A program made the position numbers and the translations under genes. A stretch of 64,000 nt of DNA, taken from positions 7,044 to 71,043 of IMG/VR virus record IMGVR_UViG_3300045806_000013. One strand, written 5' to 3'. Positions 5,725-45,695 of this stretch are shown here, in pieces (the first letter of the stretch is position 1; every line of letters starts with the position of its first letter). Below the pieces are notes generated by a model, which saw only the letters and a list, made by a program, of their open reading frames with translations, was not told the DNA's origin and did not search any database. The DNA comes from a virus.

Positions 5725-7497
5725 ATGACAATTTCTCAATTATCTCCGGGAGTTGCAGTAAACGAAGTGAATCTGACTACTATTGTCCCTTCCGTTTTAA
5801 CAACAGCCGGTGCATATGTGGGTCCATTCGCATGGGGACCAGTAAATTCAATAGTTCCCGTTAGCACAGAACAAGTATTGGTGGGCACATTCGGAAAACC
5901 GACCAATGGAAATGCAAATTCATGGTTTACCGCATCATCTTTCCTTGCATATGGAAACAACCTAAACATTATCCGCACTGCGAACAGCGCAACATATAAC
6001 GCTTCCGCAAATTCATTGGCACCAGTACAAATTCAGAATGCGCAAGCGTTCCAATTCAACTATCTACCAAATGGTGCAGCTAATACATACGGACCTTTCG
6101 TGGCTCGTTATCCTGGCGTTTTGGGTAATTCACTTACTATCGCAGTGCTAGATGGTGGTTCTTCTGCATCACAATTCAGTAATTGGACAGTTCCTATCAT
6201 AAATGCGGCAGGTTCAAACTATGCTAACGTGGCATTGGCTGGGTTCTTTGGTACTGCACCCGGAACATCTTATTTTGCATCACAAGTAGGTGCGGCAAAC
6301 GACGAAATTCACATTGCTGTTGTGGACACTGGCGGTCTGGTTTCTGGTACCCAAGGAACAGTTCTTGAAGTATATCCATTCCTCTCAAAAGCTGTCGATG
6401 GTGTTGATAAGAATGGCGTATCAAACTATTACAAAAATGCAGTGTTTAACACGTCACAATATGTGTATGCAGTCGATCAATTGAATTATGCCTCCAATAA
6501 TGGAAAAGCGAACTCATGGGGTCAGATGGCAGCTAATGTGGCATTTGCAACAGTATCTGGACCACAATCATTTGCGATGTCTGGTGGAACTGAAGTATAT
6601 CCACAAGATGGGGACATCGTCAATTCTTATACAATGTTCTCCGATCCAGTGTCGTCACAGGTTTCATTACTAATGACCGGTCCATGGGATGTTACTGTGC
6701 AACAAAATGCGGTAAATATTGCAGCAACTCGTAAAGATTGCGTGGCCTTTGTGTCACCACCTCAGTCCGCTGTTGTGAACAACTCAGGCAATGAACAAAC
6801 AAGCGTCATTAGCTGGTATAACACACTGTCTAGCATTACAGGTAGTCCAAGTGGTAGCTATGGGTTTGCTGACTCTGGTTGGAAATATATGTTCGATAAG
6901 TATAACAATACATATCGTTGGGTTCCATTGAATGGTGATATTGCTGGTCTATGTGTAAGCACAGACTCTACAAATGCTCCATGGTGGTCTCCTGCTGGCT
7001 TCAATCGTGGTGCCGTTAAGAATGCTATCAAACTGGCATGGAATCCAACTAAGCCACAACGTGATGCAATTTACCCTTATGGTGTTAATCCCGTTGCAGC
7101 ATTCCCAGGTAATGGTACTGTGTTGTTTGGTGACAAAACCATGCAAGTTAAGCCATCTGCATTTGATCGCATCAATGTCCGTAGATTGTTTATTGTTCTT
7201 GAACAGGCTATTGCTAAAGCTGCGCAATATTCTTTGTTTGAATTTAACGACCAGTTCACACAAGCACAATTTGTGGCATTGGTAACTCCATTCTTGACAC
7301 AAATACAAGGACAGCGTGGCATCACTGCGTTCGAGGTTGTTTGCAATTCCACAAACAATACCCCTGCTGTGATTAATGCTAACCAATTTGTAGGTGATAT
7401 ATACATCCAACCTGCTCGTTCGATCAATTACATCCAATTGAACTTTACTGCTGTTGGTACTGGCGTTAACTTCTCGACAGTTGTTGGTCAAGCTTAA
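5725..7497 (+). CDS. gp18: Tail sheath protein
   Basis: SPGV N-terminus, WWSPAGFNRG, FDRINVRRLF, PARSINYI. Confidence 0.95.
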   Translation: MTISQLSPGVAVNEVNLTTIVPSVLTTAGAYVGPFAWGPVNSIVPVSTEQVLVGTFGKPTNGNANSWFTASSFLAYGNNLNIIRTANSATYNASANSLAPVQIQNAQAFQFNYLPNGAANTYGPFVARYPGVLGNSLTIAVLDGGSSASQFSNWTVPIINAAGSNYANVALAGFFGTAPGTSYFASQVGAANDEIHIAVVDTGGLVSGTQGTVLEVYPFLSKAVDGVDKNGVSNYYKNAVFNTSQYVYAVDQLNYASNNGKANSWGQMAANVAFATVSGPQSFAMSGGTEVYPQDGDIVNSYTMFSDPVSSQVSLLMTGPWDVTVQQNAVNIAATRKDCVAFVSPPQSAVVNNSGNEQTSVISWYNTLSSITGSPSGSYGFADSGWKYMFDKYNNTYRWVPLNGDIAGLCVSTDSTNAPWWSPAGFNRGAVKNAIKLAWNPTKPQRDAIYPYGVNPVAAFPGNGTVLFGDKTMQVKPSAFDRINVRRLFIVLEQAIAKAAQYSLFEFNDQFTQAQFVALVTPFLTQIQGQRGITAFEVVCNSTNNTPAVINANQFVGDIYIQPARSINYIQLNFTAVGTGVNFSTVVGQA

Positions 7498-32419: not shown

Positions 32420-32494
32420 GCCACTCTAGCTCAATGGGAGAGCAGGGAACTCATAATTCCTTGGCACTTGGATCGAAACCAAGGAGTGGCACCA
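32420..32494 (+). tRNA. tRNA-Met/Ile2(CAT)
   Basis: Cloverleaf, loop CTCATAA, T-loop ATCGAAA, CCA. Confidence 0.88.
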
Positions 32495-32509
32495 TCTTAC
32501 AGGTATCAT

Positions 32510-33319
32510 ATGAAATCGTTTAAAGAATATTCAGAAGCTAAAAAGAAAGTTCCATTTTTGTCTTGGGATTCCGGATTTTCGGAAGTACGTGAAAAGAAAG
32601 TAACTGAAAATTGGCATGGTTTGCCACAAAAACAGGACTCCACCGGAAATAACAAATTTGGACAGAACTACGATGCCGGTTTTCATGATCACCCAGATGT
32701 AAAGCCTAGGAATGTATCGGATGATCATGCTAGGGCAATACTAAGGTATACGACAACATCCAGTAATGGAGAAAGAGGTCATGCGTCATCTGGAAATATG
32801 AATGCGTATCTTAGGAATAAAGCGGGGGACAAAACCCAACGAATACTGCATGACCATGATCCAAAAAAAGTACACGATTCTATAAAAACATTATCTTCTG
32901 CATTCACTAAAGAAAATACAAATAAGAAAGCTATTCATACATATGGTGGTGTTCCTGCACATATTGGCGAGAAGTTGGAGAAAAGTGAGAAGGGTTCTGA
33001 GCATCATTTAGCGGGATTTACTAGTACAAGTTCTGCGCAACGGACGGCCAAACACTTTGCACATACATATAATGGATTTGATCCGAAAAAAGTAAAGCAT
33101 GTTATACACTATCATGTTAAGCCTGGAGCAGGTCTATCCGCAGTGCACCACACAGACTATAATGAAAATGAAGTGATTTTACATCATGGGGCAAAATTGA
33201 AATATTCCCACACTACGGTGCATAAAGGAACTGAGGGTGAAGGTGACACTCATGTGCATCATGTGGTGGTTGGGTCTAAACATAAAAAGATTGAAGATTA
33301 TGGAGATTATGAAGCCTGA
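32510..33319 (+). CDS. ADP-ribosyltransferase-like protein (Alt/Mod-type), His-rich, CTS-like N-terminus
   Basis: YT...MNAYLR, FTSTS and ENEV motifs; starts MKSFKEYSE. Confidence 0.75.
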   Translation: MKSFKEYSEAKKKVPFLSWDSGFSEVREKKVTENWHGLPQKQDSTGNNKFGQNYDAGFHDHPDVKPRNVSDDHARAILRYTTTSSNGERGHASSGNMNAYLRNKAGDKTQRILHDHDPKKVHDSIKTLSSAFTKENTNKKAIHTYGGVPAHIGEKLEKSEKGSEHHLAGFTSTSSAQRTAKHFAHTYNGFDPKKVKHVIHYHVKPGAGLSAVHHTDYNENEVILHHGAKLKYSHTTVHKGTEGEGDTHVHHVVVGSKHKKIEDYGDYEA

Positions 33320-34868: not shown

Positions 34869-34875
34869 GAAAAAT

Positions 34876-34963
34876 GGATCATAGATGCTCTGGGAGCTAA
34901 CTGGCCTTGAAAACCGGTCCACTGTTGATAGCGGTGACAGTTCGATTCTGTTGTGATCCTCCC
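34876..34963 (+). tRNA. tRNA-Ser(TGA)
   Basis: Loop CTTGAAA, long variable arm; ends CCC rather than CCA. Confidence 0.75.
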
Positions 34964-35015: not shown

Positions 35016-35711
35016 ATGTACTATACAATTTATAAAATAGTAAATCAAATCGATGGCAAGGTCTACATAGGTAGCCATAAGACCAAAGATTTGAATGACA
35101 AATATATGGGGTCGGGTAAATATCTGAAACGCGCCCAAGAGAAGTGTGGAATTGTTAATTTCACCAAAGAGATACTTTTCACATATGATAATGCACAGGA
35201 AATGTATGCAAAAGAAGCAGAGTTGGTGAATGAAGATTTCTTATCAACTGAAAACACATACAATTTGAAGGTTGGTGGTTCTGGTGGTTGGGATTTTATC
35301 AATAATGATAAAGATCATTATACCCACTCGTCGGAACATTCATATTACATGAAAAGACATTATAAAGAAAAAATGAAAGACACTTCATACAGAAATAAAG
35401 TATGTGAAAATATTTCAAAAGGTTTAAAAAATAAAGCAAACAATGATCCTGTATACCTAGAGAAAAAAAGAAAACATATTAAAAATATGAGTTTCGCAGG
35501 CAAACATCATAAACAGGAGAGTAAAATAAAAATGTCACTTTCTATGCAGGGTAAACAATCAGGTGAAAAAAATTCACAATATGGTTCCTTGTGGATAACT
35601 AATGGAACCGAAAATAAAAAGATAAGTAAAAATGATGTTATACCAAATGGTTGGTATAGAGGAAGAAAAATAAAGGTGCAGTCCCATAATGGTATTGGAG
35701 TTGATTGCTAA
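35016..35711 (+). CDS. GIY-YIG (Seg-like) homing endonuclease
   Basis: TIYKIVN...VYIGSH, YMGSG, YNLKVGG, NUMOD3-like GKHH. Confidence 0.9.
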   Translation: MYYTIYKIVNQIDGKVYIGSHKTKDLNDKYMGSGKYLKRAQEKCGIVNFTKEILFTYDNAQEMYAKEAELVNEDFLSTENTYNLKVGGSGGWDFINNDKDHYTHSSEHSYYMKRHYKEKMKDTSYRNKVCENISKGLKNKANNDPVYLEKKRKHIKNMSFAGKHHKQESKIKMSLSMQGKQSGEKNSQYGSLWITNGTENKKISKNDVIPNGWYRGRKIKVQSHNGIGVDC

Positions 35712-36259: not shown

Positions 36260-36333
36260 GGGGGTATAACTTAGTGGTAAAGTAGTAGGCTTTTAACCTA
36301 TTAACCAGAGTTCAATTCTCTGTGCCCCTACCA
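36260..36333 (+). tRNA. tRNA-Lys(TTT)
   Basis: Loop CTTTTAA, CCA. Confidence 0.9.
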
Positions 36334-36720: not shown

Positions 36721-36727
36721 GTTTTAT

Positions 36728-36798
36728 TCTTGTGTAATGTAATAGTAGCATAGGGCCGTATACACCCAGTGAAAGTGCAACTCTTTCTGCAAGAGCCA
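36728..36798 (+). ncRNA. Degenerate tRNA-like RNA
   Basis: Acceptor stem and GCCA, D-like and T-like arms, non-canonical anticodon and T loops. Confidence 0.55.
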
Positions 36799-36803
36799 GT
36801 TTT

Positions 36804-36863
36804 AGGATTCATTCAGCAAAATCAAAAAATTCAACTTATATTTGAAAAAAAGCGAATCCTGTT
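36804..36863 (+). ncRNA. Y-RNA-like motif copy 1 with anticodon-stem-loop cargo (TAT)
   Basis: aggattc/gaatcct stem, ATTCAGCAA, 3' CTGTT; ttcaa-CTTATAT-ttgaa hairpin. Confidence 0.65.
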
Positions 36864-36872
36864 GTATTTTAT

Positions 36873-36946
36873 CTCCGTGTGGCGTAATGGTAGCGTCCGT
36901 GATTTGGGGTCATGGGGCGAAGGTTCGATTCCTTCTACGGAGACCA
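36873..36946 (+). tRNA. tRNA-Pro(TGG)
   Basis: Loop TTTGGGG, CCA. Confidence 0.9.
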
Positions 36947-36957
36947 GTTAGTTTAAT

Positions 36958-37041
36958 GGACGTTTGACCGAGAGGCCGAAGGTAGCGGATTGTAAACCCG
37001 CTCGTAACTGCACGTTGGTTCGAATCCAACAGCGTCCACCA
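36958..37041 (+). tRNA. tRNA-Tyr(GTA)
   Basis: Loop TTGTAAA, variable arm, CCA. Confidence 0.9.
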
Positions 37042-37109
37042 TGAAAGCGCAGTTTGTAGGATTCTGCCACTGAGTAGTAAAACTCGATAAATAATACCTA
37101 CACATATTT

Positions 37110-37184
37110 GGGCTGTTAGTATAACTGGGAATACAGTGGCGTTGCAAGCCTCAGTCGGGAGTTCGATCCTCCCACGGTCCACCA
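37110..37184 (+). tRNA. tRNA-Ala(TGC)
   Basis: G3:U70 pair, loop GTTGCAA, CCA. Confidence 0.88.
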
Positions 37185-37228
37185 TTATTGTTTATAAATA
37201 TAAGACTTACATTTATAGGATTTTTCGT

Positions 37229-37525
37229 ATGCTGACATTCAAATCATTCATCAGAGAATCTGTTCAATAAGAACATGAATTCAATGATAGTTCTGCACCG
37301 ATGCAGGCTGGAATGCCTAAAACTCTCCATGATTTTTTGTGGCATCTATCTGCACCAAATCCAGATGGTCGCGGTGTTGTAAGTGGGTTGCAGTTGAAGG
37401 GTGTTACAAATGAAAGTGCGGGCAATTTCGCCAATCATGTGGATGAACATGGTACAATCTGGATTCATGATCACAAACATGGTCAAGGTCCGCATAAGAC
37501 AATACCGATTCACGCTGCAAAATAA
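37229..37525 (+). pseudogene. Small His-rich CTS-bearing gene with an in-frame TAA at codon 14
   Basis: TATAAATA at 37193, AGGA RBS, MLTFKSFIRESVQ*EHEF... in frame with the 37301 ORF. Confidence 0.6.
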
Positions 37526-37532
37526 GATAGAT

Positions 37533-37607
37533 GGTTCTATGACGTAGATGGATGCGTATCGGTTTCATAAGCCGAAGAGAGTGGATCGATACCACTTAGA
37601 ACCACCA
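37533..37607 (+). tRNA. tRNA-Met/Ile2(CAT)
   Basis: Loop TTCATAA, CCA. Confidence 0.85.
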
Positions 37608-37615
37608 TAGTTAAT

Positions 37616-37692
37616 CCGCCCGTAGCACAACTGGAGAATGTACCGTCCTACGAAGTCGAGTGGTGGGAGTTCGAATCTCTCCGGGTGGACCA
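37616..37692 (+). tRNA. tRNA-Arg(ACG)
   Basis: Loop CTACGAA, imperfect anticodon stem, CCA. Confidence 0.8.
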
Positions 37693-37707
37693 ATTTAGGA
37701 GTATAAT

Positions 37708-37893
37708 ATGTCAGATGGTGGTAAAGGTTCCACGCCCAGACCATTTTCAGTTTCCAACGCCGAGTATGCTGCCCGATGGGATACGATATTCGGAAAGGAA
37801 GTAGAAAATGCTGAAGTTAAGAAAGAAATAGACGATCTGTTGTATGGAGTCAACAAAGACCTAAAAAGGATCATTGACCTCAATAAACAGTGA
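37708..37893 (+). CDS. Hypothetical protein
   Basis: AGGAG RBS; MSDGGKGS.PRP N-terminus. Confidence 0.65.
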   Translation: MSDGGKGSTPRPFSVSNAEYAARWDTIFGKEVENAEVKKEIDDLLYGVNKDLKRIIDLNKQ

Positions 37894-38087
37894 TATAATG
37901 CCATATGTGTTTTAGCGCACCAAACTTTACAAAATAAGTGACGAGTTGGGTTCGGTAGCACACAGAGTTTTGAGTCATTTTTGCGTTTTTTGTCCTACAT
38001 AATAATGTGAGATATGGAAATATTTCATAGATATCGGCATCTAGATACCGAGTGTAATTTCCATATAAAAAACAAAAAGGAAATATT

Positions 38088-38711
38088 ATGGCAGACGTAT
38101 TAACACAATCAGACTTATTTAATTTATTTCGTGATAACGCAGATATTCGGCTGGAAGATGCTGAACATTCCTCAGATATCCGTAGGGAAACTGCGGCAGG
38201 CGTGGCAGACATTCGTAGGGAAACTGCGGAACACACAGCAGATATTCGTAGAGAAGATTCTGAAGGTGTATCGAGGATTCTTCTAGAACAAGCCAAGGGT
38301 CTTGACAATATCAATTCTGATGTTAAGGCTACTGGTTGGAGTGTTGCAGATAGAGTTGGGGCAGAGTCAGCTAAGATTATTAATCAACAAACGCAATTCT
38401 ATATTGCTGCTGCTGCTGAAAGTGCAAGAAATGCATTGGAAGCTGCGAAGGTTTCGTATAACATTCTTGAGGGTCAAGCTCTTATTAATAGGACGACAAC
38501 CCATGAAGCAATGGAAACCCGTAAGCTGATCAATGACCTTCAGGTACAAGACCTAAATCGTATGTTGATTGAAAAGAATTCAGTCTTGATGGAGGAACGT
38601 GTAGAAGGTCGTTCACTATTAAGGGCCATTGAATCTAATCAATTCGCTACTTTACAAGGTAACATTAATTCACTACATGCACAGATTCATGCTGGCACTG
38701 CTGTGGCTTAA
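38088..38711 (+). CDS. Coiled-coil protein with 11-residue DIRRE repeats
   Basis: Four D-I-R-[RL]-E repeats spaced 11 aa apart; AAGGA RBS. Confidence 0.65.
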   Translation: MADVLTQSDLFNLFRDNADIRLEDAEHSSDIRRETAAGVADIRRETAEHTADIRREDSEGVSRILLEQAKGLDNINSDVKATGWSVADRVGAESAKIINQQTQFYIAAAAESARNALEAAKVSYNILEGQALINRTTTHEAMETRKLINDLQVQDLNRMLIEKNSVLMEERVEGRSLLRAIESNQFATLQGNINSLHAQIHAGTAVA

Positions 38712-38764
38712 TTTGATAGTTGGAATCTGGTTGATCACAAGTTGACCAGATTTTTTTAAGATTT

Positions 38765-38853
38765 AGAATACATTCAGCAAAAATTATTATAGGTTCGATT
38801 CCTAAATTATGCTTTTAGCATGACGCCAATGGTGGCAAATATTGTATTCTGTT
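38765..38853 (+). ncRNA. Y-RNA-like motif copy 2 with T-arm, hairpin and D-arm cargo (YrlA-like order)
   Basis: agaatac/gtattct stem; tagg-TTCGATT-ccta, atgc-tttta-gcat, gcc-aatggt-ggc. Confidence 0.65.
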
Positions 38854-38859
38854 GTTTAC

Positions 38860-38893
38860 ACCCGGATAATTAAATGGTATAATAATCGGCTGA
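38860..38893 (+). pseudogene. 5' half remnant of tRNA-Ile, truncated in the anticodon loop
   Basis: acccgga-taattaaatggtataat-a-atcgg-ctga parallels the 5' half of the tRNA at 39658. Confidence 0.7.
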
Positions 38894-38919
38894 CCTAAAT
38901 AAGTATTTTAAAGATTTAT

Positions 38920-39672
38920 ATGCCATTGTATTGTTGCTGTATTGAATGTAGAAGTGTTGTGGCAACTAGCCAGATATCCAGACACTATAAGAGTAAATTA
39001 TGTCTAAGTGGAGGTAAATACGTACCAATGACGTGCTGCCCCCATTGTAATCTCCGAAAAGAGGATATAAATTCAGATTTTGCGAATCATGTGAAATTTT
39101 GCGCGGCAAATGAGTCGGTGCCAAATTATAAAAATGGAAAAGGTTCAAAATATTTTACAGGTAGATTAGCATGGAATAAAGGCAAAACTAAAGAAAATGA
39201 TGTAAGAGTTGCTAAATCTGCAAATACGCTGATGGTAGGCATAAAGCCGAATCATGGTCAATGTAGTGATCCCATTGAAGAGACGGAAAGACGATTGAAA
39301 CTTTCAAAAATTGCAAAACTTAATGGGTTTGGTGGATATAGACAAAATGCAGGTATAAGTAAAAAGTTTAGAGTTTTAGATTCATATGGAAAAGAGGTTG
39401 TGTTACAGAGTAGCTATGAACTTAAATGTTCAGAGATATTGAATTCATCCAACATAAAGTGGATTAGACCAACCGCATTGAAATACGATAACAAAAATTA
39501 TTTTGCCGATTTCTATCTTCCTGAATATGACGTGTGGCTAGACCCGAAGAATGCATATAAAGCCACTCTAGACAGTGATAAAATCAAAAAAGTAATAGCA
39601 CAAAATAATATAAGATTGTATGTTTTATTAGAACATCAATTAACAAAAGAATATATTGCCGGGATAATATAG
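38920..39672 (+). CDS. Putative homing endonuclease (Zn finger, NUMOD, PD-(D/E)xK)
   Basis: CPHC, AWNKG, SSYE...YFADFYLP...LDPK. Confidence 0.75.
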   Translation: MPLYCCCIECRSVVATSQISRHYKSKLCLSGGKYVPMTCCPHCNLRKEDINSDFANHVKFCAANESVPNYKNGKGSKYFTGRLAWNKGKTKENDVRVAKSANTLMVGIKPNHGQCSDPIEETERRLKLSKIAKLNGFGGYRQNAGISKKFRVLDSYGKEVVLQSSYELKCSEILNSSNIKWIRPTALKYDNKNYFADFYLPEYDVWLDPKNAYKATLDSDKIKKVIAQNNIRLYVLLEHQLTKEYIAGII

Positions 39673-39732
39673 TGATCTGTATAATCGCCTGATAAGCGAT
39701 CAGTGATGGTTTGATTCCATCTCTCGGTACCA
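39658..39732 (+). tRNA. tRNA-Ile(GAT)
   Basis: Loop CTGATAA, CCA; overlaps the endonuclease stop codon. Confidence 0.8.
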
Positions 39733-39740
39733 AAAAATAT

Positions 39741-39815
39741 AAGTCGCAGGTGTAAATGGCTGCATCTTAGTCTCCAAAACTAAAGGACACGGATCGTTAC
39801 CGTGGCGACTTGCCA
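39741..39815 (+). tRNA. tRNA-Trp(CCA)
   Basis: Loop CTCCAAA, GCCA end. Confidence 0.85.
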
Positions 39816-39839
39816 GTTTTTTATAAGGAGTGAAGTGAT

Positions 39840-40337
39840 ATGTCAGATTTTAATATCGATGAAGTAAAGGCATTTATTGTTGCCCAAAGTGAATCTACCA
39901 AAGTATATCTTGGTGCAGATTCAGAAAGACTACGCATTGATGGTGTCTGGTATGTTGACTACTCGTTGGCTGTAATTGTCCACATTGATGGGTGCCATGG
40001 TTGTAAGATTTTTGGATATGTTCAACGTGAATTGGATTATGATCATAAGAAATCTAAACCATCTATGCGTCTGATGTCGGAGGTATATAAAGTTTCTGAG
40101 TTATTCCAGAATATGCAGGATGTTCTGGAGGATAGACACGTTGAAATCCATATTGACATAAATCCAGATGAACGACATGGCTCGTCTTGTGTGGTGCAAC
40201 AAGCTATTGGATATATTAAGGGGACGTGTAACATGAAACCAATGGTGAAACCTAATGCTCCCGCAGCAAGCTTCGCAAGTGATAGGTTAAAAAGAATCTT
40301 ACATGAGCAGGACACTATTGAGAAAGTGACAACTTGA
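39840..40337 (+). CDS. RNase H-like YkuK/DUF458 family protein
   Basis: VYLGADS, RLMSEV, EIHIDIN, AASFASD. Confidence 0.75.
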   Translation: MSDFNIDEVKAFIVAQSESTKVYLGADSERLRIDGVWYVDYSLAVIVHIDGCHGCKIFGYVQRELDYDHKKSKPSMRLMSEVYKVSELFQNMQDVLEDRHVEIHIDINPDERHGSSCVVQQAIGYIKGTCNMKPMVKPNAPAASFASDRLKRILHEQDTIEKVTT

Positions 40338-40341
40338 ACCG

Positions 40342-40382
40342 CCTCCTATTGTGCAGATGTATAAATACTGTATAATAGGAGG
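40342..40382 (+). promoter_or_regulatory. RBS-sequestering hairpin with a late promoter in its loop
   Basis: cctcctattgtgcag-atg-TATAAATA-ctgtataataggagg, 15-bp stem. Confidence 0.8.
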
Positions 40383-40388
40383 TTGTAT

Positions 40389-40965
40389 ATGAACTACGTA
40401 AAGATATATAACGATTTAATAAACACTGCAGCCGGGAACGAATATGATGAGTACACTGAAAAACATCATATAATTCCAAAATGTCTGGGAGGTTCTAATA
40501 AGAAAGAGAATTTAATTGTCCTTTCATATAGAGAGCATTTCATATGCCATTGGTTATTGTGTAAGATATATCCGGATAAAAAAATATGGAATTGAGAATT
40601 TTGTAAAAGAGATTTTATTTGTTTATGATACACCTGAACCTATGTTTTTAAAAGAAGCAGAATTAGTAAATATAAATTTTCTAGCATGTGAAAATGTCTA
40701 TAATATTAAGATTGGTGGTTTCGGTGGGTTTGACTTTATAAACAAGTCAAGAACTACTGAAAGCAGGATAAAATCTGGAAAAATGGGCAGATTAAAGGGT
40801 GGTAAATCTTTTAGTAAAGATTATAATCCAAATATCGGATCAATCTATATTACAAATTCAATTTCTGATAAAAGAATAAAATCTGGAGAACCAATACCGG
40901 ATGGTTGGACTAGAGGTCGAACTAAAGGAGGTTGGAAAGCCAAAAAAATTTTGGAGAATAGTTAA
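40389..40965 (+). pseudogene. Chimeric or degraded homing endonuclease: HNH N-terminus joined out of frame to a GIY-YIG C-terminus
   Basis: EKHHIIPKC...REHFICHWLL (40389-40595), then KKYGIENF...YNIKIGG in another frame. Confidence 0.7.
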
Positions 40966-41164
40966 ATATTTTCCTCTAAGTTTTGTTATGATGTAGATAC
41001 TATGAAATCGACTGTAGGCATATGGTCAGAAAGGTCATTCGAGGCACTTTCGGAGCGTCACCAAGTAATAGTTATAACTACTTACCACTAACCCAGTGCA
41101 CTTAATTATATGGGTAAAATGGTTCCGAATGAGTGTGGCGGAACGATCATGACAAATTTATAAT

Positions 41165-41256
41165 GGGAGTAAGAATTGGTATTCAGAGAGGTCTTATAAG
41201 CCTTTTAGCGCCAGATTAGCGTTCTTGAGAAGGTTCGATTCCTTCTACTCCTACCA
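41165..41256 (+). tRNA. Atypical tRNA with TAT anticodon and long variable arm
   Basis: gggagta/tactcct acceptor, 4-bp/4-nt D arm, gaggt-CTTATAA-gcctt, canonical T arm, ACCA. Confidence 0.75.
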
Positions 41257-41306
41257 AATATCGCCCTGACATATGGCGTACAATGAGATAAGTAGTATGT
41301 TACCTT

Positions 41307-41380
41307 GCCTTTGTAGTATAGTGATATTACTCACCCTTGGTACGGGTGAAACAAGAGTTTGATTCTCTTCGAAGGCACCA
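41307..41380 (+). tRNA. tRNA-Thr(GGT)
   Basis: Loop TTGGTAC, CCA. Confidence 0.85.
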
Positions 41381-41459
41381 TTTATAAACACATTATTTAA
41401 TAAGGTGTAACCCGCGACACAACCGTATGGTAGTGGGTAGTGTGTTTTTAAATGTTTAT

Positions 41460-41535
41460 GCGTCTTTGGCAGTGATGGTTCATGCAGTGGTCTGAAAAGC
41501 CACCTATGTTGGTTCGATCCCAACAGGACGCACCA
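41460..41535 (+). tRNA. tRNA-Phe(GAA)
   Basis: Loop CTGAAAA, CCA. Confidence 0.88.
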
Positions 41536-41641
41536 AGTTAAGCAGAGCCTGACTGAAACGGGCATGGGAGAAGCTGGATGCTGGAAATGTATCAGGGGTT
41601 CGATTCCCACAGTCTCTTATTTCAGTCTGCTTATTAAATTA

Positions 41642-41715
41642 GCCCTTTTCGTATAGTGGCATTACATCTGTTTCGTAATCAGATTACGGCAGTTCAATTC
41701 TGTCAAAGGGCACCA
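41642..41715 (+). tRNA. tRNA-Thr(CGT)
   Basis: Loop TTCGTAA, CCA. Confidence 0.88.
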
Positions 41716-41719
41716 AAGG

Positions 41720-41917
41720 ATGAAAAAATATTCACTAAAGCTATTGACTTCGGGTAGGCAGGTATGGTACAATAACCGTCTACACACGATAGAACACAAC
41801 ATCGTTAGTGACGGTAAGTTATATGTGAGATTAGTTGATAATCCTAATTTGATACCAGAAGAAAATGTTGATTGTGAGTATACTGATATAGTTTTAGAAA
41901 GAATAACGGGGATATAG
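41720..41917 (+). CDS. Hypothetical protein
   Basis: ORF between tRNAs; stop codon lies inside the next tRNA. Confidence 0.5.
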   Translation: MKKYSLKLLTSGRQVWYNNRLHTIEHNIVSDGKLYVRLVDNPNLIPEENVDCEYTDIVLERITGI

Positions 41918-41985
41918 CAAAATTTGGTATTGCCACTGACTCTTAATCAGTAAAAAAGTGGATTCGATTTCCACTGTCCCCACCA
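41908..41985 (+). tRNA. tRNA-Lys(CTT)
   Basis: Loop CTCTTAA, CCA. Confidence 0.85.
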
Positions 41986-41991
41986 AGTTAA

Positions 41992-42161
41992 GGTTAGTTG
42001 CAAATGAACACTAGTAGTTACCTTTATACCCTGAACAAGTATATTGGAGTGAATGTAAGTAGTTGTGCAGACTGTTCAACCAAAGAGGTGTTAAACCCGT
42101 AGATTAAGTTCCTACGCTCTCGCTCAATGGATGTTGTAAATTCAAATTTACACTAACCACC
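41992..42161 (+). ncRNA. Putative ~170-nt structured RNA
   Basis: 5' ggttagt...aaatgaa pairs with 3' ttcaaattt...actaacc; ends in ACC. Confidence 0.45.
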
Positions 42162-42167
42162 GTTTTT

Positions 42168-42236
42168 AGGATAGGTTCTGCAAAACCAAAAGATCAACCA
42201 TAATGTTCTTGTCTTGATCGACAAAACTATCCTGTT
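42168..42236 (+). ncRNA. Y-RNA-like motif copy 3
   Basis: aggatag/ctatcct stem, GTTCTGCAA, 3' CTGTT; internal ttgtc/gacaa hairpin. Confidence 0.65.
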
Positions 42237-42243
42237 GTTTAAA

Positions 42244-42320
42244 GCCCTGGTGACGGAATAGGCATACGTGTTGGTCTTAGAAACCAAATTTTGGGGGTTC
42301 AAGTCCCCCCTAGGGCACCA
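42244..42320 (+). tRNA. tRNA-Leu(TAG), short variable loop
   Basis: Loop CTTAGAA, CCA. Confidence 0.88.
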
Positions 42321-42324
42321 ATTT

Positions 42325-42399
42325 ACCGCTATAGTTCAATGGATAGAATAGGGGTTTCCTAAACCTCGGGTGTAAGTTCGATTCTTACTGGTGGTACCA
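42325..42399 (+). tRNA. tRNA-Arg(CCT)
   Basis: Loop TTCCTAA, CCA. Confidence 0.9.
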
Positions 42400-42529
42400 A
42401 GTTTTGTAGTTAAGTCGGTTAGACTTTAGTAAAGGCGATGCGGAATGATCCCAAGGGTCACGTTAAATATCGAAGCGCATCTTAATGAAAATGTGTGCAG
42501 CCTACTACAAATTATTTTTAGAAAAAGCA

Positions 42530-42558
42530 TTGACAGACTACACTCAATTTGTTATAAT
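42530..42558 (+). promoter_or_regulatory. Sigma70 consensus promoter for the Y-like RNA/TROVE unit
   Basis: TTGACA-17bp-TATAAT with extended -10 TG. Confidence 0.85.
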
Positions 42559-42638
42559 AGCGACTTCTTAATTGATAAAGCAACAATTACCAAGTGAGGC
42601 TATCATGTAGTTAAAGAAAAGAATTTGTAGAGTTTTTA

Positions 42639-42920
42639 AGGATGAGTACAGCAGCATTAAATATACTGACTAAAAAAGGTGCCTGATACGGAGACCCCGA
42701 GTAATCGGTTATTTAAAGGGCTAGGTTGATAGTTTCCATAGTATGGATTGTGCCGAAACACCTATCTAGTACACATTACATGTGTTATGGTAATGAATTA
42801 TCTTTGCTGATAGATCAAGACATCTATCTGAGTTACAGTGAATCATACCCATCCGCAAGCTGGGGTCTACACTGAGGTTAGATAAACCAGTTCAATATAG
42901 TAACGATTGACCATCCTGTT
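42639..42920 (+). ncRNA. Y-RNA-like motif copy 4 (large, ~280 nt)
   Basis: aggatg/catcct stem, GTACAGCA, 3' TTGACCATCCTGTT; internal agacccc/ggggtct and gatagat/atctatc helices. Confidence 0.6.
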
Positions 42921-42936
42921 ATTTTTTTAGAGATTT

Positions 42937-43003
42937 AGAATCGGTTCAGCAAAAAAAAGCTTAATAGGCACCAAACTTGTAACTTGGAAAAAACGATTCT
43001 GTT
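42937..43003 (+). ncRNA. Y-RNA-like motif copy 5 with anticodon-stem-loop cargo (TGT)
   Basis: agaatcg/cgattct stem, GTTCAGCAA; ccaaa-CTTGTAA-cttgg. Confidence 0.65.
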
Positions 43004-43009
43004 GTATTG

Positions 43010-43121
43010 AGGTTAAGTTCCGCAAACATAAATTTATTACAATCCAAACAGCAAGTCCGGTTCGATTCCGGTTTATAGTGTAATGGTAGCACAGCAGTAA
43101 GTAAAAAAAGTTTAACCTGTT
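43010..43121 (+). ncRNA. Y-RNA-like motif copy 6 with T-arm then D-arm cargo
   Basis: aggttaa/ttaacct stem, GTTCCGCAA; ccgg-TTCGATT-ccgg then tagtgtaatggtagcac. Confidence 0.65.
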
Positions 43122-43143
43122 ATTTAATGAAAGAGAGTATATT

Positions 43144-44574
43144 ATGAACACATTTGTAAATGCCGTAGCAAACCAATCTACCCGTACCACCAATGGTATG
43201 AAGGCCCGTAAGTCCACTGCTAATGCAGTTGTTGACTTGTTCTACAATGCCGGTGCGTCCCGTGGTAAGGATATTGTTCCTGCTTTCACCGCAGCATTGG
43301 CAGAAAACCGCGAATTGGCACTTCGTGTTGTCGCATGGTTGCGTGATGTTCGTGGTGGTGCTGGTGAACGTAAGCTTTTCCGTGATATCTTGGTATATCT
43401 GGAAAAGAGTGATCCGGATGCTGCTAAGGCTCTGGTTGCTAAGGTGCCGGAAGTTGGTCGTTGGGATGACTTGTTCATCTTCAAGACTGATGCGCTGAAG
43501 AATGTTGCATACACTTTGTTGGGTGATGCTTTGCGTGAAAAGAATGGTCTTGCTGCAAAGTGGACTCCACGTCAAGGCCCAGTGGCCGCTGAAGTTCGTA
43601 AGTTCTTCGGTATGTCACCAAAGTTTTACCGTAAGTCTCTGGTCGAAATGACTAATGTGGTTGAACAAAATATGTGTGCAAAGGAATGGGATGAAATTAA
43701 TTTCTCACACGTTCCATCGGTTGCAGCTTCGCGTTACAAGAAGGCATTTAACCGTAACACCCCAGCTTATGCGGCTTATGTTGCATCGTTGGTGAAGGGT
43801 GGAGACCTAAAGGTTAAGGTTAATGCTGGTGCAGTGTATCCATATGATGTCCTAAAGGGTCAAATTGGTGGTTACAAGAGGGTTTGGGATAAGACTGAAT
43901 TGGATTTGATCCAAAAGCAATGGGAAGCTCTTCCTGACTATGTTGGTGAAGCAAGCATTCTGCCTTTGGTTGATTCGTCTGGTTCTATGTCATGTCCTGT
44001 TGGTGGATATGGTTCTAAGAGTGGTATGTCTTGTATGGATGTTGCAGTTTCGTTGGGGCTGTATCTCGCTGACAAGAACAAGGGTAAGTTCAAGGATACT
44101 TTCTTGACCTTCTCGAAGTCGCCAAGGTTGGTAACGCTCAATGGCAATATCAATCAAAAGATTAACCAAATGTGTACCGGTGAAGTGGCTAACACTAACC
44201 TGAATGCAGCATTGGATAAGATTTTGAAAGTAGCCAAGAATGGAAATGTTCCGACCGAAGAAATGCCAGCAATGCTGTTGATTCTTTCAGACATGCAATT
44301 CGACGGTACTGTCGATGGTCGTGATGACAGTGCAATGGAAATGATTGCACGTAAGTATAAGGACGCAGGTTACACCCTTCCAAAGGTTGTGTTCTGGAAC
44401 TTGAATGCTGCATATGGTAACGCACCAGTGAAGTTTGACAAGTCTGGTACTGCACTTGTATCTGGATTCTCTCCAGCAATCATTAAGCCTTTATTGGCGA
44501 ATGATTTGGACACTTTCACCCCAGAAAGTGTTATGTTGAAGACCATCATGGTTGACCGTTACAAAGTCCTGTAA
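43144..44574 (+). CDS. TROVE/Ro60-like protein with vWA domain (DUF2828-like)
   Basis: RDVRGGAGER helical N-domain, AAKWTPR, MIDAS VDSSGSM, LSDMQFD, VFWNL, VSGFSP. Confidence 0.8.
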   Translation: MNTFVNAVANQSTRTTNGMKARKSTANAVVDLFYNAGASRGKDIVPAFTAALAENRELALRVVAWLRDVRGGAGERKLFRDILVYLEKSDPDAAKALVAKVPEVGRWDDLFIFKTDALKNVAYTLLGDALREKNGLAAKWTPRQGPVAAEVRKFFGMSPKFYRKSLVEMTNVVEQNMCAKEWDEINFSHVPSVAASRYKKAFNRNTPAYAAYVASLVKGGDLKVKVNAGAVYPYDVLKGQIGGYKRVWDKTELDLIQKQWEALPDYVGEASILPLVDSSGSMSCPVGGYGSKSGMSCMDVAVSLGLYLADKNKGKFKDTFLTFSKSPRLVTLNGNINQKINQMCTGEVANTNLNAALDKILKVAKNGNVPTEEMPAMLLILSDMQFDGTVDGRDDSAMEMIARKYKDAGYTLPKVVFWNLNAAYGNAPVKFDKSGTALVSGFSPAIIKPLLANDLDTFTPESVMLKTIMVDRYKVL

Positions 44575-44607: not shown

Positions 44608-44720
44608 GAAGGGTATTGTATTGTTGTTAACTCAACTTAACACAATAAAGATGCATCTGTGGTATAATACACTTCAAAATGATATAAATAAACACATTAG
44701 AATATTTTTCTGGAGTGTCT

Positions 44721-45221
44721 ATGGTTAGGAAAATAAAAGTCAGTGATGAACAAATAATTGAAGCATCATTAAATTCAAACTCAGCTACACAAGCCTCTGT
44801 AATGTTGGGTATAAAATATGATACTTATAAAGTTCATGCAACCAGGTTGGGTGTTTTCAAAACAAACAAATCTGGTATTGGTATAAATAAACTAAAAAAA
44901 GACGGTCGAGGTAAAATTAGTTTGACTGAAATACTGGAAGGAAAACATCCAAGTTATCAGACAAACAAATTAAGATTAAGATTATTATCCGAAAAAATTA
45001 AAGAGAGTAAATGTGAAATTTGTGGTATAAATGATTGGTTAGGAAAAAGAATTGCGTTAGAGCTTGACCATATTGACGGTAAGAACTATAATCACATATA
45101 TAGTAATTTGAGGATTGTGTGTCCAAATTGTCATGCACAGACAGACACATATAGAGGAAAGAATAAAAGCGGTAGTGGTGGAACGGTATACACACCGGGC
45201 TTAAAACCCGACGCACTATAA
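44721..45221 (+). CDS. HNH homing endonuclease
   Basis: CEIC, LELDHIDG, NLRIVCPNCH; TATAAATA at 44683. Confidence 0.88.
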   Translation: MVRKIKVSDEQIIEASLNSNSATQASVMLGIKYDTYKVHATRLGVFKTNKSGIGINKLKKDGRGKISLTEILEGKHPSYQTNKLRLRLLSEKIKESKCEICGINDWLGKRIALELDHIDGKNYNHIYSNLRIVCPNCHAQTDTYRGKNKSGSGGTVYTPGLKPDAL

Positions 45222-45279: not shown

Positions 45280-45353
45280 GCCCCATTAGTATAATGGCAT
45301 TATGACGGTTTTGTAATCCGTTGGTGGCAGTTCGATTCTGTCATGGGGCACCA
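45280..45353 (+). tRNA. tRNA-Thr(TGT)
   Basis: Loop TTTGTAA, CCA. Confidence 0.9.
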
Positions 45354-45464: not shown

Positions 45465-45695
45465 TTGAAATATACTATTATTGGTCGCGCAGCAGCTTTA
45501 TCTGAAGAATCCAGGGAGAAAAGAAAAAGTACATTTAAAACTATATCACATCAAAAGGGTACGATAAATAGTCAATTCGGATCAATGTGGATAACCAATG
45601 GAGTCAATAATAGGAAAATAAAAAAAGATGATACAATCCCTGATGGATGGTACATCGGACGGTATATAAATAAGAACAATGCGGGATTAGTTTAA
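45465..45695 (+). pseudogene. C-terminal remnant of a Seg-like endonuclease
   Basis: NSQFGSMWITNG...IPDGWYIGR matches the C-terminus of 35016; no catalytic domain. Confidence 0.65.

Follow-up and report, generated by a model that had tools for sequence, protein, structure and literature searches.

What are the small hairpins, resembling the anticodon arms of tRNAs, that lie between the tRNA genes of a large phage, and do they stand on their own? The question is raised by a stretch of 64,000 nucleotides (hereafter the window) occupying positions 7,044 to 71,043 of the IMG/VR virus record IMGVR_UViG_3300045806_000013, part of a T4-type phage contig of 71 kb with clamp loader and DNA polymerase genes. 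ARAGORN finds 27 tRNA genes there, all on the + strand, between 32.3 and 45.8 kb of the window. A preliminary description, made from the sequence alone, had noticed in this array several isolated anticodon stem-loops on A-rich linkers and had proposed that they serve as decoys or sensors for anticodon nucleases. We find that each of them is the inner module of a larger, conserved RNA frame that is shared by many phages. Our preferred reading, to which we give a probability of roughly 0.6, is that the hairpins are the variable modules of Y-RNA-like small RNAs, whose common handle would be bound by a divergent phage Ro60-like ring encoded beside them (43144-44574), the resulting particle displaying mimics of tRNA parts.

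The hairpins themselves are present as first described: ttcaa-CTTATAT-ttgaa at 36830-36846, ccaaa-CTTGTAA-cttgg at 42971-42987, with one mismatch, and tatg-CTTTTAG-catg at 38808-38822, all three between A-rich flanks. The array also contains full tRNAs with the same anticodons (tat at 41165-41256, tgt at 45280-45353 and ttt at 36260-36333). What was not borne out is their isolation. They are not free-standing, since the invariant part is the frame around them, which had gone unreported, as had three further framed copies (E3, E5 and E6 below). A search of the window's + strand for a CTNNNAN loop on a 5-bp stem gives 27 hairpins, of which 15 do not belong to tRNAs, compared with 8.0 ± 3.0 after block shuffling; when one mismatch is allowed, the count is 87 against 73 ± 9. 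Such hairpins alone are not beyond chance, and it is the frame that exceeds it. The initial observation was real but incomplete, and its interpretation partly right.

Read from 5' to 3', an element consists of a U-run, a first strand of a 7-bp stem (AGRATNN), a 3-nt spacer, CAGCAA followed by A's, a variable module, an A-run, the second stem strand (NNATYCT) and an invariant G, usually followed by TT. The terminal stem is mostly AG.../...CU. A general scan of the window finds six such elements, all on the + strand, which is that of the tRNAs. E1 (36804-36861) has the stem strand AGGATTC at 36804-36810, the spacer ATT, CAGCAA at 36814-36819, the 3' strand GAATCCT at 36854-36860 and the G at 36861; its module is the hairpin at 36830-36846 (loop CUUAUAU) and then an A-run, and tRNA-Pro starts 12 nt downstream. 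E2 (38765-38851; stem AGAATAC/GTATTCT, spacer ATT, CAGCAA at 38775-38780) encloses a T-arm mimic, AGGTTCGATTCCT, the hairpin ATGC-TTTTA-GCAT, which corresponds to that at 38808-38822, and a D-arm mimic, GCCAATGGTGGC. In E3 (42168-42234; stem AGGATAG/CTATCCT, spacer GTT), where CAGCAA is replaced by CTGCAA, the module is a hairpin GATCAA...TTGATC with a 16-nt loop, then GACAAAA; tRNA-Leu starts 10 nt downstream. Modules of this type (GCTAAC..CTAGCGACAAAA) are also found in viral loci L119, L130, L135, L141 and L175. The remaining three elements lie directly upstream of the open reading frame (ORF) 43144-44574. E6 (42639-42918), about 280 nt long, has a stem of 6 pairs, AGGATG(A)/(C)CATCCT, the spacer GTA, the variant CAGCAG at 42649-42654 and its G at 42918; its orthologue in locus L146, the closest relative, keeps the stem by a two-sided change (GGGATG/CATCCC). 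E4 (42937-43001; stem AGAATCG/CGATTCT, spacer GTT, CAGCAA at 42947-42952) contains the hairpin at 42971-42987 (loop CUUGUAA). E5 (43010-43119; stem AGGTTAA/TTAACCT, spacer GTT, variant CCGCAA) carries a T-arm mimic, CCGGTTCGATTCCGG, and a D-arm mimic, GTGTAATGGTAGCAC, ends 24 nt 5' of the start codon of the ORF, and has orthologues at the same place in L141, L195 and L146. E2 and E5 share T arms of the GGTTCGATTCC type, with D arms reading GTGTAATGGTAGCAC or GCCAATGGTGGC. Scored with R1, a covariance model of the short form of the element, E1 reaches 69.9 bits, E4 49.4, E3 41.7 and E2 36.8.

Folding of single sequences gives unremarkable z-scores for four of the elements (-0.48, -2.02, -0.63 and +0.11), so that thermodynamic stability alone fails to single them out. 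A mobile-element (MITE-like) reading was rejected in view of the strict co-orientation with the tRNAs of the window and of the compensatory, non-identical nature of the "inverted repeats". A terminator reading was likewise rejected: nothing resembling a terminator lies between 42400 and 43200, and instead of a GC stem with a U-run the elements have weak stems with GUU after them.

The frame belongs to a large family. The 21-nt 5' half alone, run against viral contigs, retrieved 81 loci; a perfect 7-bp partner followed by G was found downstream in 47 of the 72 distinct matches with enough downstream sequence, where 3.6 were expected from shuffles. With at most three mismatches in the 5' half, 198 viral loci and the contig of the window yield 162 instances, 140 of them unique, versus none in reversed sequences. 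A loose gapped pattern scan of viral contigs returned 118 loci, among which only L055 was a true relative after the stem filter, four other passes being judged chance; no named phage gave a megablast match to an 8-kb part of the window. The elements are located in tRNA arrays, many in tandem, and about half are preceded by CCA plus 2-3 nt; the sequence logo displays the U-run on their 5' side and U-rich trailers on their 3' side. When 75 short elements, drawn from 12 kinds of phage and for the most part picked by a script demanding a paired stem, are aligned, 98.5% of the stem cells are paired, versus 70.4% when shuffled and 32-47% with slid partners. Double-change cells number 134 versus 34, and all seven stem pairs vary on both sides.

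The family is widespread and apparently unnamed, and we call its members CAGCAA-frame RNAs. The frame is described neither in Rfam 15 nor in the literature searched, including the passages considered of PMC4201824, PMC12135203, PMC7824862 and bioRxiv 10.1101/2024.10.10.617714; the 22 phages with YrlA RNAs tabulated in the first of these might overlap with ours. The modules enclosed by the frame fall into several types: single hairpins, many of which carry a CUUNUAA loop on a 5-bp stem; hairpins of other sorts, that of E3 among them; tRNA-like bodies whose parts keep their normal order and whose acceptor is short and closed; bodies with circularly permuted parts, in which the anticodon arm comes first, then the T arm, a closed acceptor hairpin and the D arm; the succession of T arm, hairpin and D arm seen in E2 and E5; and larger RNAs such as E6.

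The gene next to E5 (43144-44574, + strand) encodes a protein of 476 residues that matches Pfam DUF2828 and DUF7788 and PHROG 850, "RNA-binding protein". It matches no Pfam TROVE profile, and phmmer against the sequences of the Protein Data Bank (PDB) does not retrieve Ro60, which is found by fold search only. An AlphaFold2 model built on 106 diverse homologues (mean pLDDT 93) was compared with PDB structures by Foldseek. The top 12 matches are all Ro60/TROVE-vWA proteins, over the full length (E 4e-10 to 4.5e-8, TM 0.43-0.63, probability 1.00), and include the Xenopus and human proteins, Deinococcus Rsr and the Ro60 of Thermus phage phiLo; identity to the solved Ro60 structures is 13-18%. Because the best fold matches are all Ro60 and full-length, the model indicates that the protein is a divergent Ro60-like ring (TROVE plus vWA, with HEAT repeats). 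D277, S279, S281, T351 and D383 are invariant in the 106-sequence alignment, and we read them as a putative MIDAS motif (DxSxS...T...D) of the vWA domain. Homologues annotated as DUF2828 "RNA-binding protein" were found in 711 phage records of the collection searched, those of mycobacteriophages being already annotated "Ro-like RNA binding protein", and a protein atlas search returned DUF2828 clusters only, mostly viral. The term DUF2828 is also met in parts of the plant literature.

Framed RNAs and the Ro-like gene are physically linked. In the window, E6, E4 and E5 are positioned 24-505 nt upstream of the gene and on the same strand. Among the 15 viral loci holding both, 13 have an element whose end precedes the Ro-like start codon by 15-26 nt. 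Two elements lie directly upstream of it in Synechococcus phage BUCT-ZZ01, and eight in tandem in Aeromonas phage LAh_6, the last abutting the ribosome-binding site. The frame is also found beside the gene in Bas63 (four copies), Cronobacter S13, Campylobacter PC14 (two), Listeria LP-125 (three), Staphylococcus CoN_Ph7 (two), Bacillus phage Nate and Mycobacterium phage Wilder (three, one of which is annotated tRNA-Asn), so that phages with both frame and gene span Mycobacterium, Listeria, Staphylococcus, Bacillus, Campylobacter, Aeromonas, enterobacterial and cyanobacterial hosts. The association also holds at the level of complete phage genomes, in which the gene was recognized by PF11443 or tblastn and the RNA by R1 at E ≤ 0.01. 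R1 matches nine of ten genomes with the gene (KVP40, GAP32, DLP_6, Aeh1, ZJGS4, fHe-Yen9-03, 1.081.O, BE02 and Ci1) and none of nine without it (T4, T5, S-PM2, Bxz1, CcrColossus, P-SSM2, phiKZ, SPO1 and RB49), giving a Fisher p of 1.2e-4 for a sample that is small, hand-picked and phylogenetically non-independent. According to passages of PMC12135203, CcrColossus is among the phages reported to have Ro60 homologues and Y-like RNAs.

There are precedents for such a pairing. In passages of PMC4201824, bacterial Y RNAs are described as encoded at most 4 kb from Ro60, on the same strand, with a tRNA-like domain and a GNCGAA motif. The Ro60 of Thermus phage phiLo binds two Y-like RNAs encoded just upstream and forms complexes with host PNPase, as stated in parts of PMC12135203, and a jumbo-phage review mentions TROVE proteins with a tRNA-like partner (PMC7824862, in a passage). 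The Ro60-like gp130 of Bas63, which adjoins tRNA genes, was needed against the ppl defence in a knockout screen whose authors guessed that some of the neighbouring "tRNA genes" are Y RNAs (bioRxiv 10.1101/2024.10.10.617714, in the passages considered).

We therefore compared the framed RNAs with the Y RNA/YrlA family (RF02553) and with Yrl1 and Yrl2 of phiLo. These too are small noncoding RNAs in which the two ends form a stem that adjoins a conserved single-stranded motif. The second module of YrlA imitates the T and D arms of tRNA, as do the modules of E2 and E5, unlike those of E1, E3 and E4. As in our loci, one to several copies adjoin a Ro gene on the same strand (two directly upstream in phiLo), and the partner protein has the fold of a TROVE plus vWA ring. 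The framed RNAs differ in having CAGCAA at a fixed 3 nt from a 7-bp stem instead of GNCGAA/CGAA, in being present in at least six copies per genome, many only 55-66 nt long and embedded in tRNA arrays, and in carrying modules that include bare anticodon arms and whole tRNA-like bodies in normal or permuted order. Membership of the YrlA family itself was tried and rejected, E1 to E6 giving no match even at E ≤ 10.

The mechanism that we propose runs as follows. The framed RNAs would be transcribed with the phage tRNA array and released from it, as stable species, by the enzymes of tRNA-precursor processing. The invariant frame (7-bp stem, 3-nt spacer, single-stranded CAGCAA, A-rich 3' linker and G) would constitute a handle bound by the DUF2828/DUF7788 Ro60-like ring, much as Ro60 binds Y RNAs. 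On this handle would be mounted interchangeable mimics, such as an anticodon arm (E1, E4) or a T-arm/D-arm elbow (E2, E5), other loads being the whole or circularly permuted tRNA bodies of relatives and other folds (E3, E6). Within phages, the handle might thus be a general adaptor letting the Ro-like ring display exchangeable tRNA mimics, through which the particle would engage tRNA-recognizing proteins and may protect the phage against host attack on tRNA or RNA.

Assembled metatranscriptome data bear on the expression of the locus. Contigs from four RNA libraries, belonging to four studies, match the stretch at 99% or more. The deepest (28, 41-50 and 86, versus mostly 2-10 elsewhere) cover 42474-43274, that is, E6, E4 and E5. 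In two studies, contigs have their first base at 42649/42650, right on the CAGCAG of E6, and directly adjoin adapter sequence; another break with abutting adapter occurs at 43055/43057, just 3' of an internal CAGCAAG in E5. Parts of the 8-kb stretch have no RNA-contig cover, for example 36867-37133 in three runs. The strain represented in run X5 has a T>G change at 38815 in the loop of the E2 hairpin (TTT to TGT) and a 1-nt deletion at 38751. A loose end in the same run joins about 34925-34955 directly to 36645; the X5 strain therefore appears to be without some 1.7 kb of the tRNA array.

Several points weigh against an assignment of these RNAs as Y-RNA-like partners of the ring. The library evidence is a hint only, because the contigs are assembled, so that transcription, strand and ends are unproven and DNA carry-over is possible. 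The Ro-binding motif of bacterial Y RNAs, GNCGAAN0-1G in the passages considered of PMC4201824, is missing from the frame, which has NNN-CAGCAA instead. The YrlA scores of relatives (36 bits for L147 and 32.9 for L189) lie below the gathering score of 69, and no element reaches the threshold. The high pairing in the alignment is partly circular, because most rows were selected for it, a bias that the slid and shuffled controls and the test based on the 5' motif alone lessen without removing. As for co-occurrence, ME3 has the gene and gives no R1 match at E ≤ 0.01; several positives are related to phages used to train R1 (1.081.O to KVP40, BE02 to CoN_Ph7 and Ci1 to S13); and in GAP32, DLP_6 and fHe-Yen9-03 the R1 matches lie 10-200 kb from the gene.

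How much of the anticodon-arm resemblance is conserved? A 7-nt loop is found in 38 of the 75 short elements, the other 37 having a loop of another size or no hairpin at all. Within these 38, U is at position 2 in 32 and A at position 6 in 31, the full C32-U33...A37 pattern that had been pointed out for the first hairpins being found in 23; the commonest loops are CUUGUAA (7) and CUUUUAA (6). The module stems differ with pairing kept (TTCAA/TTGAA, TTTGA/TCAAA, TTAGA/TCTAA, TTCGA/TCGAA). Anticodon switching, suggested earlier as a check, does occur: the triplet is the sole difference in two of three near-identical element pairs (UCU/UUU and GCU/UCU), and the E4 orthologue in L146 has UUU, not UGU. 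The E2 hairpin, by contrast, does not hold as an anticodon loop, E2-type homologues being without a 7-nt CU...A loop; its position, between the T-arm and D-arm mimics, is acceptor-like. In these sequences, anticodon-arm mimicry is real and conserved for modules of the E1/E4 type.

For these modules (E1, E4 and their relatives), the idea that they act on host anticodon nucleases as decoys, as competing substrates or as sensors, while the frame, with or without the Ro-like protein, just stabilizes and presents them, deserves to be kept in mind although we consider it doubtful. tRNA-Lys(UUU) is a target of PrrC and of PARIS, and tRNAs encoded by a phage can compensate for attacks of this kind. 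The retention of U33 and A37 in CUUNUAA-type loops over covarying stems argues for it, as do the changes confined to the anticodon-like triplet in near-identical pairs, the UUU of the E4 orthologue, and the full tRNAs of the same anticodons in the array. Bas63 gp130 can be cited on both sides, being a Ro60-like counter-defence gene while ppl, the system that it counters, consists by its description of an ATPase-PHP protein whose proposed target of degradation is DNA rather than tRNA (passages of bioRxiv 10.1101/2024.10.10.617714). The full loop pattern is confined to 23 of the 75 short elements, 37 have no 7-nt loop, and many members of the family carry T/D-arm mimics, whole tRNA-like bodies or unrelated folds, for which the decoy proposal does not apply. 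It is compatible with, and not exclusive of, the Y-RNA-like particle.

Some odd tRNA annotations in other phages touch the same subject. Inserted between the D arm and the anticodon arm of otherwise normal-looking, CCA-ended tRNAs, frame halves are found in inverse order (A-run, 3' strand, short loop, 5' strand, UUCUGCAA) in BUCT-ZZ01 (L199, 16625-16835), KVP40 (L200, 3507-3753 and 5304-5419) and Cronobacter S13 (L203, 3396-3638). The "pseudo-tRNAs" of KVP40 (113-124 nt) and the "tRNA-Ser/OTHER" of S13 (113-121 nt) look like the same inverse arrangement. KVP40-type "pseudo-tRNAs" share with the framed RNAs the same arrays and the same Ro-like gene, and their insertion is a hairpin followed by a (U)GCUGCAA-like motif; they differ, in a comparison made by eye, in having the parts of the frame inside a tRNA with an open acceptor and CCA, in a circularly permuted arrangement. 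The inverse-order insertions are a circular permutation of the permuted framed elements. The Wilder "tRNA-Asn" (L208, 2734-2804) lies inside a permuted framed element (TGGACTCC ta CAGCAA ... GGAGTCCA G), and is for that reason probably no tRNA.

These arrangements are one ground for supposing that an intron-like or permutation system uses the two halves of the frame as processing signals in order to excise, circularize or rejoin tRNA pieces, the elements being its intermediates and not its end products. The hairpin followed by UUCUGCAA within two BUCT-ZZ01 tRNAs, the similar insertion in "tRNA-Pseudo-3/4/5" of KVP40, the circularly permuted tRNA-like bodies of many relatives, the RNA ligase gene directly upstream of the Ro-like gene in GAP32, and the RNA contigs of two studies that start within E6 would all fit such a system. 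Yet the acceptor-like stem of the permuted forms is closed by a loop and without CCA, so that no functional tRNA could result, the short elements contain nothing to splice, and no joints were found in the RNA contigs, whose ends are weak evidence; we hold this explanation to be very improbable. Even less credit can be given to the view that the elements are inert, being duplicated tRNAs that have decayed and persist in the array solely as spacers at which nucleases cut between its tRNAs. Their location, the CCA plus 2-3 nt and U-run preceding about half of them, the U-rich trailers and the tRNA-fragment-like modules are what such spacers would look like, but conservation of the frame, with compensatory changes in its stem, extends from actinobacterial to cyanobacterial phages, the frame is missing in all nine phages without the Ro-like gene, most of which have tRNA genes, and in Staphylococcus, Listeria and Mycobacterium phages the elements sit beside the gene with few or no tRNAs nearby.

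The distance of 15-26 nt to the start codon in 13 of 15 loci, and the abutment of the last LAh_6 element on the ribosome-binding site, could also be taken to mean that the Ro-like gene is controlled in cis by the elements, acting as leaders or operators, for instance as sites of translational autoregulation. This is the explanation to which we assign the smallest chance: E1, E2 and E3 lie 1-6 kb upstream with other genes and tRNAs in between, elements are found downstream of the gene in Bas63, Wilder, CoN_Ph7 and BE02, and those of GAP32 are about 200 kb away from it.

Other small RNAs were considered for comparison. In Rfam 15, no family reaches its threshold on any element. E1-E6 are called as tRNAs neither by ARAGORN nor by Rfam RF00005, and with no CCA end they could not be charged; a weak tRNA match of 14.7 bits (gathering score 29), at 42950-43079, spans parts of E4 and E5. 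Phage-encoded tRNAs serve as counter-defence against tRNA-cleaving systems. The elements share with them the context of a tRNA array and anticodon loops exposed to host nucleases, and differ in not being tRNAs. The rnaC and rnaD RNAs of T4 (species 1 and 2) are likewise small, stable and without an assigned function, and are encoded in a T4-type tRNA cluster, rnaC having a T-arm-like end. They have no CAGCAA frame, and T4 has no R1 match and is without a PF11443 gene; as homologues they were rejected, on the absence of the motif and of an R1 match.

The sole recurring Rfam match is to the Class I RNA of Dictyostelium (RF01414), always end to end over 56 positions, at 19.6-33.1 bits versus a gathering score of 41.5. 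L123 and L193, which have the same element sequence, score 33.1, E1 32.2, elements of LAh_6 29.6, 28.0 and 25.7, L055 28.8 and E2 19.6. As described in passages of PMC7919456, Class I RNAs are 42-65 nt long, start with AAG, have a 6-bp terminal stem conserved in structure only, and end with CUGU; an 11-nt motif containing UUACAGCAA directly follows the 5' strand, and the middle is variable and A/U-rich. In the Rfam consensus of RF01414, that motif shows CUUACAGCAA. The phage consensus has in common with Class I RNAs the AG start, the short stem, CAGCAA and the CUGU end. The spacer of the Rfam consensus is 4 nt versus 3 in the phage frame, however, and the full 11-nt motif is missing in the phages. 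Class I RNAs are products of eukaryotic nuclear genes with a DUSE promoter element about 60 nt upstream, unlike the phage elements, which lie inside a tRNA operon, and their known direct binder is the RRM protein Rnp1A; they are reported as unique to Dictyostelia (PMC7919456, in the passages considered). The two groups might form one RNA class, in which AG and a short covarying stem are followed by UU(A)CAGCAA, a middle that varies, the other strand of the stem and CUGU; this is an unlikely proposition, which we raise tentatively.

Several further features of the locus can be recorded. A possible seventh element on the + strand at 45480-45587, ATTGGTC gcg CAGCAG ... GATCAAT G, between tRNA-Thr and tRNA-Gly, is weak, its start not being AG, and the relaxed scan that yielded it also gave four minus-strand matches, and two in reversed controls. 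A promoter-like site of the sigma-70 type lies on the + strand at 42530-42558 (TTGACA-17-TATAAT, 12/12, the -10 hexamer being preceded by TG), about 80 nt 5' of E6, and is a match to consensus only; E6, E4 and E5 occupy the interval from its 3' side to the start of the Ro-like ORF at 43144. An RNase H-like ORF (PF04308; 39840-40337, + strand) inside the tRNA array is a possible further component. Its homologues lie immediately 3' of the Ro-like gene in KVP40 (L200, 16482-17012) and Vibrio phage 1.081.O (L220, 2083-2601), and it was found by tblastn in 14 loci, 12 of which also contain framed elements. In Cronobacter phage GAP32, the RNA ligase gene mentioned above occupies positions 4-1269 of L204.

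The tRNA array has other peculiarities. A tRNA-like sequence at 39741-39815, uncalled by ARAGORN and Rfam, has the acceptor AAGTCGC/GCGACTT, a discriminator G, CCA, an anticodon-like loop CUCCAAA (CCA, Trp) and an unusual T arm. An odd tRNA-like piece at about 36724-36798, ending ...GAGCCA, lies immediately 5' of E1, and a long hairpin at about 41536-41640 encloses GGGGTTCGATTCCCAC. The tRNA-Ile(tat) at 41165-41256 is 92 nt long, with its anticodon at position 31. Two sub-threshold tRNA-Sec matches (35.6 and 35.0 bits) occur in the array, the odd-piece regions listed including 34875-34960. Homing or HNH endonuclease genes are dispersed in it (35016-35711, 40383-40965 and 44715-45221), the second being broken into two overlapping frames, 40383-40595 and 40516-40965. 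An ORF at 32468-33319, directly 3' of tRNA-Arg and tRNA-Met, matches ADP-ribosyltransferase families (PF03496, E 2e-10).

Carriers of the Ro-like gene include KVP40, Felix-O1-like phages such as Bas63, Listeria P100-like phages, and staphylococcal and Campylobacter phages, that is, both model phages and phages relevant to therapy. A knockout screen has already identified one DUF2828 member, Bas63 gp130, as acting against a defence system (bioRxiv 10.1101/2024.10.10.617714, in part). No RNA partner of DUF2828 proteins had been defined until now, and the frame provides a concrete and searchable signature for one, which enables direct experiments in a laboratory phage-host pair. It also accounts for odd annotations such as "pseudo-tRNA", "tRNA-OTHER" and mis-called tRNAs like the "tRNA-Asn" of Wilder. 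The modular principle of one handle with many mimics of tRNA parts would bear on how phages deal with tRNA-directed immunity. The likeness to Class I RNAs is a testable lead for an abundant class of eukaryotic RNAs of unknown mechanism: if the two were one class, Class I RNAs would be Y-RNA-like partners of a DUF2828-type Ro paralogue, and an RNA-protein particle of this kind would be common to large phages and eukaryotes.

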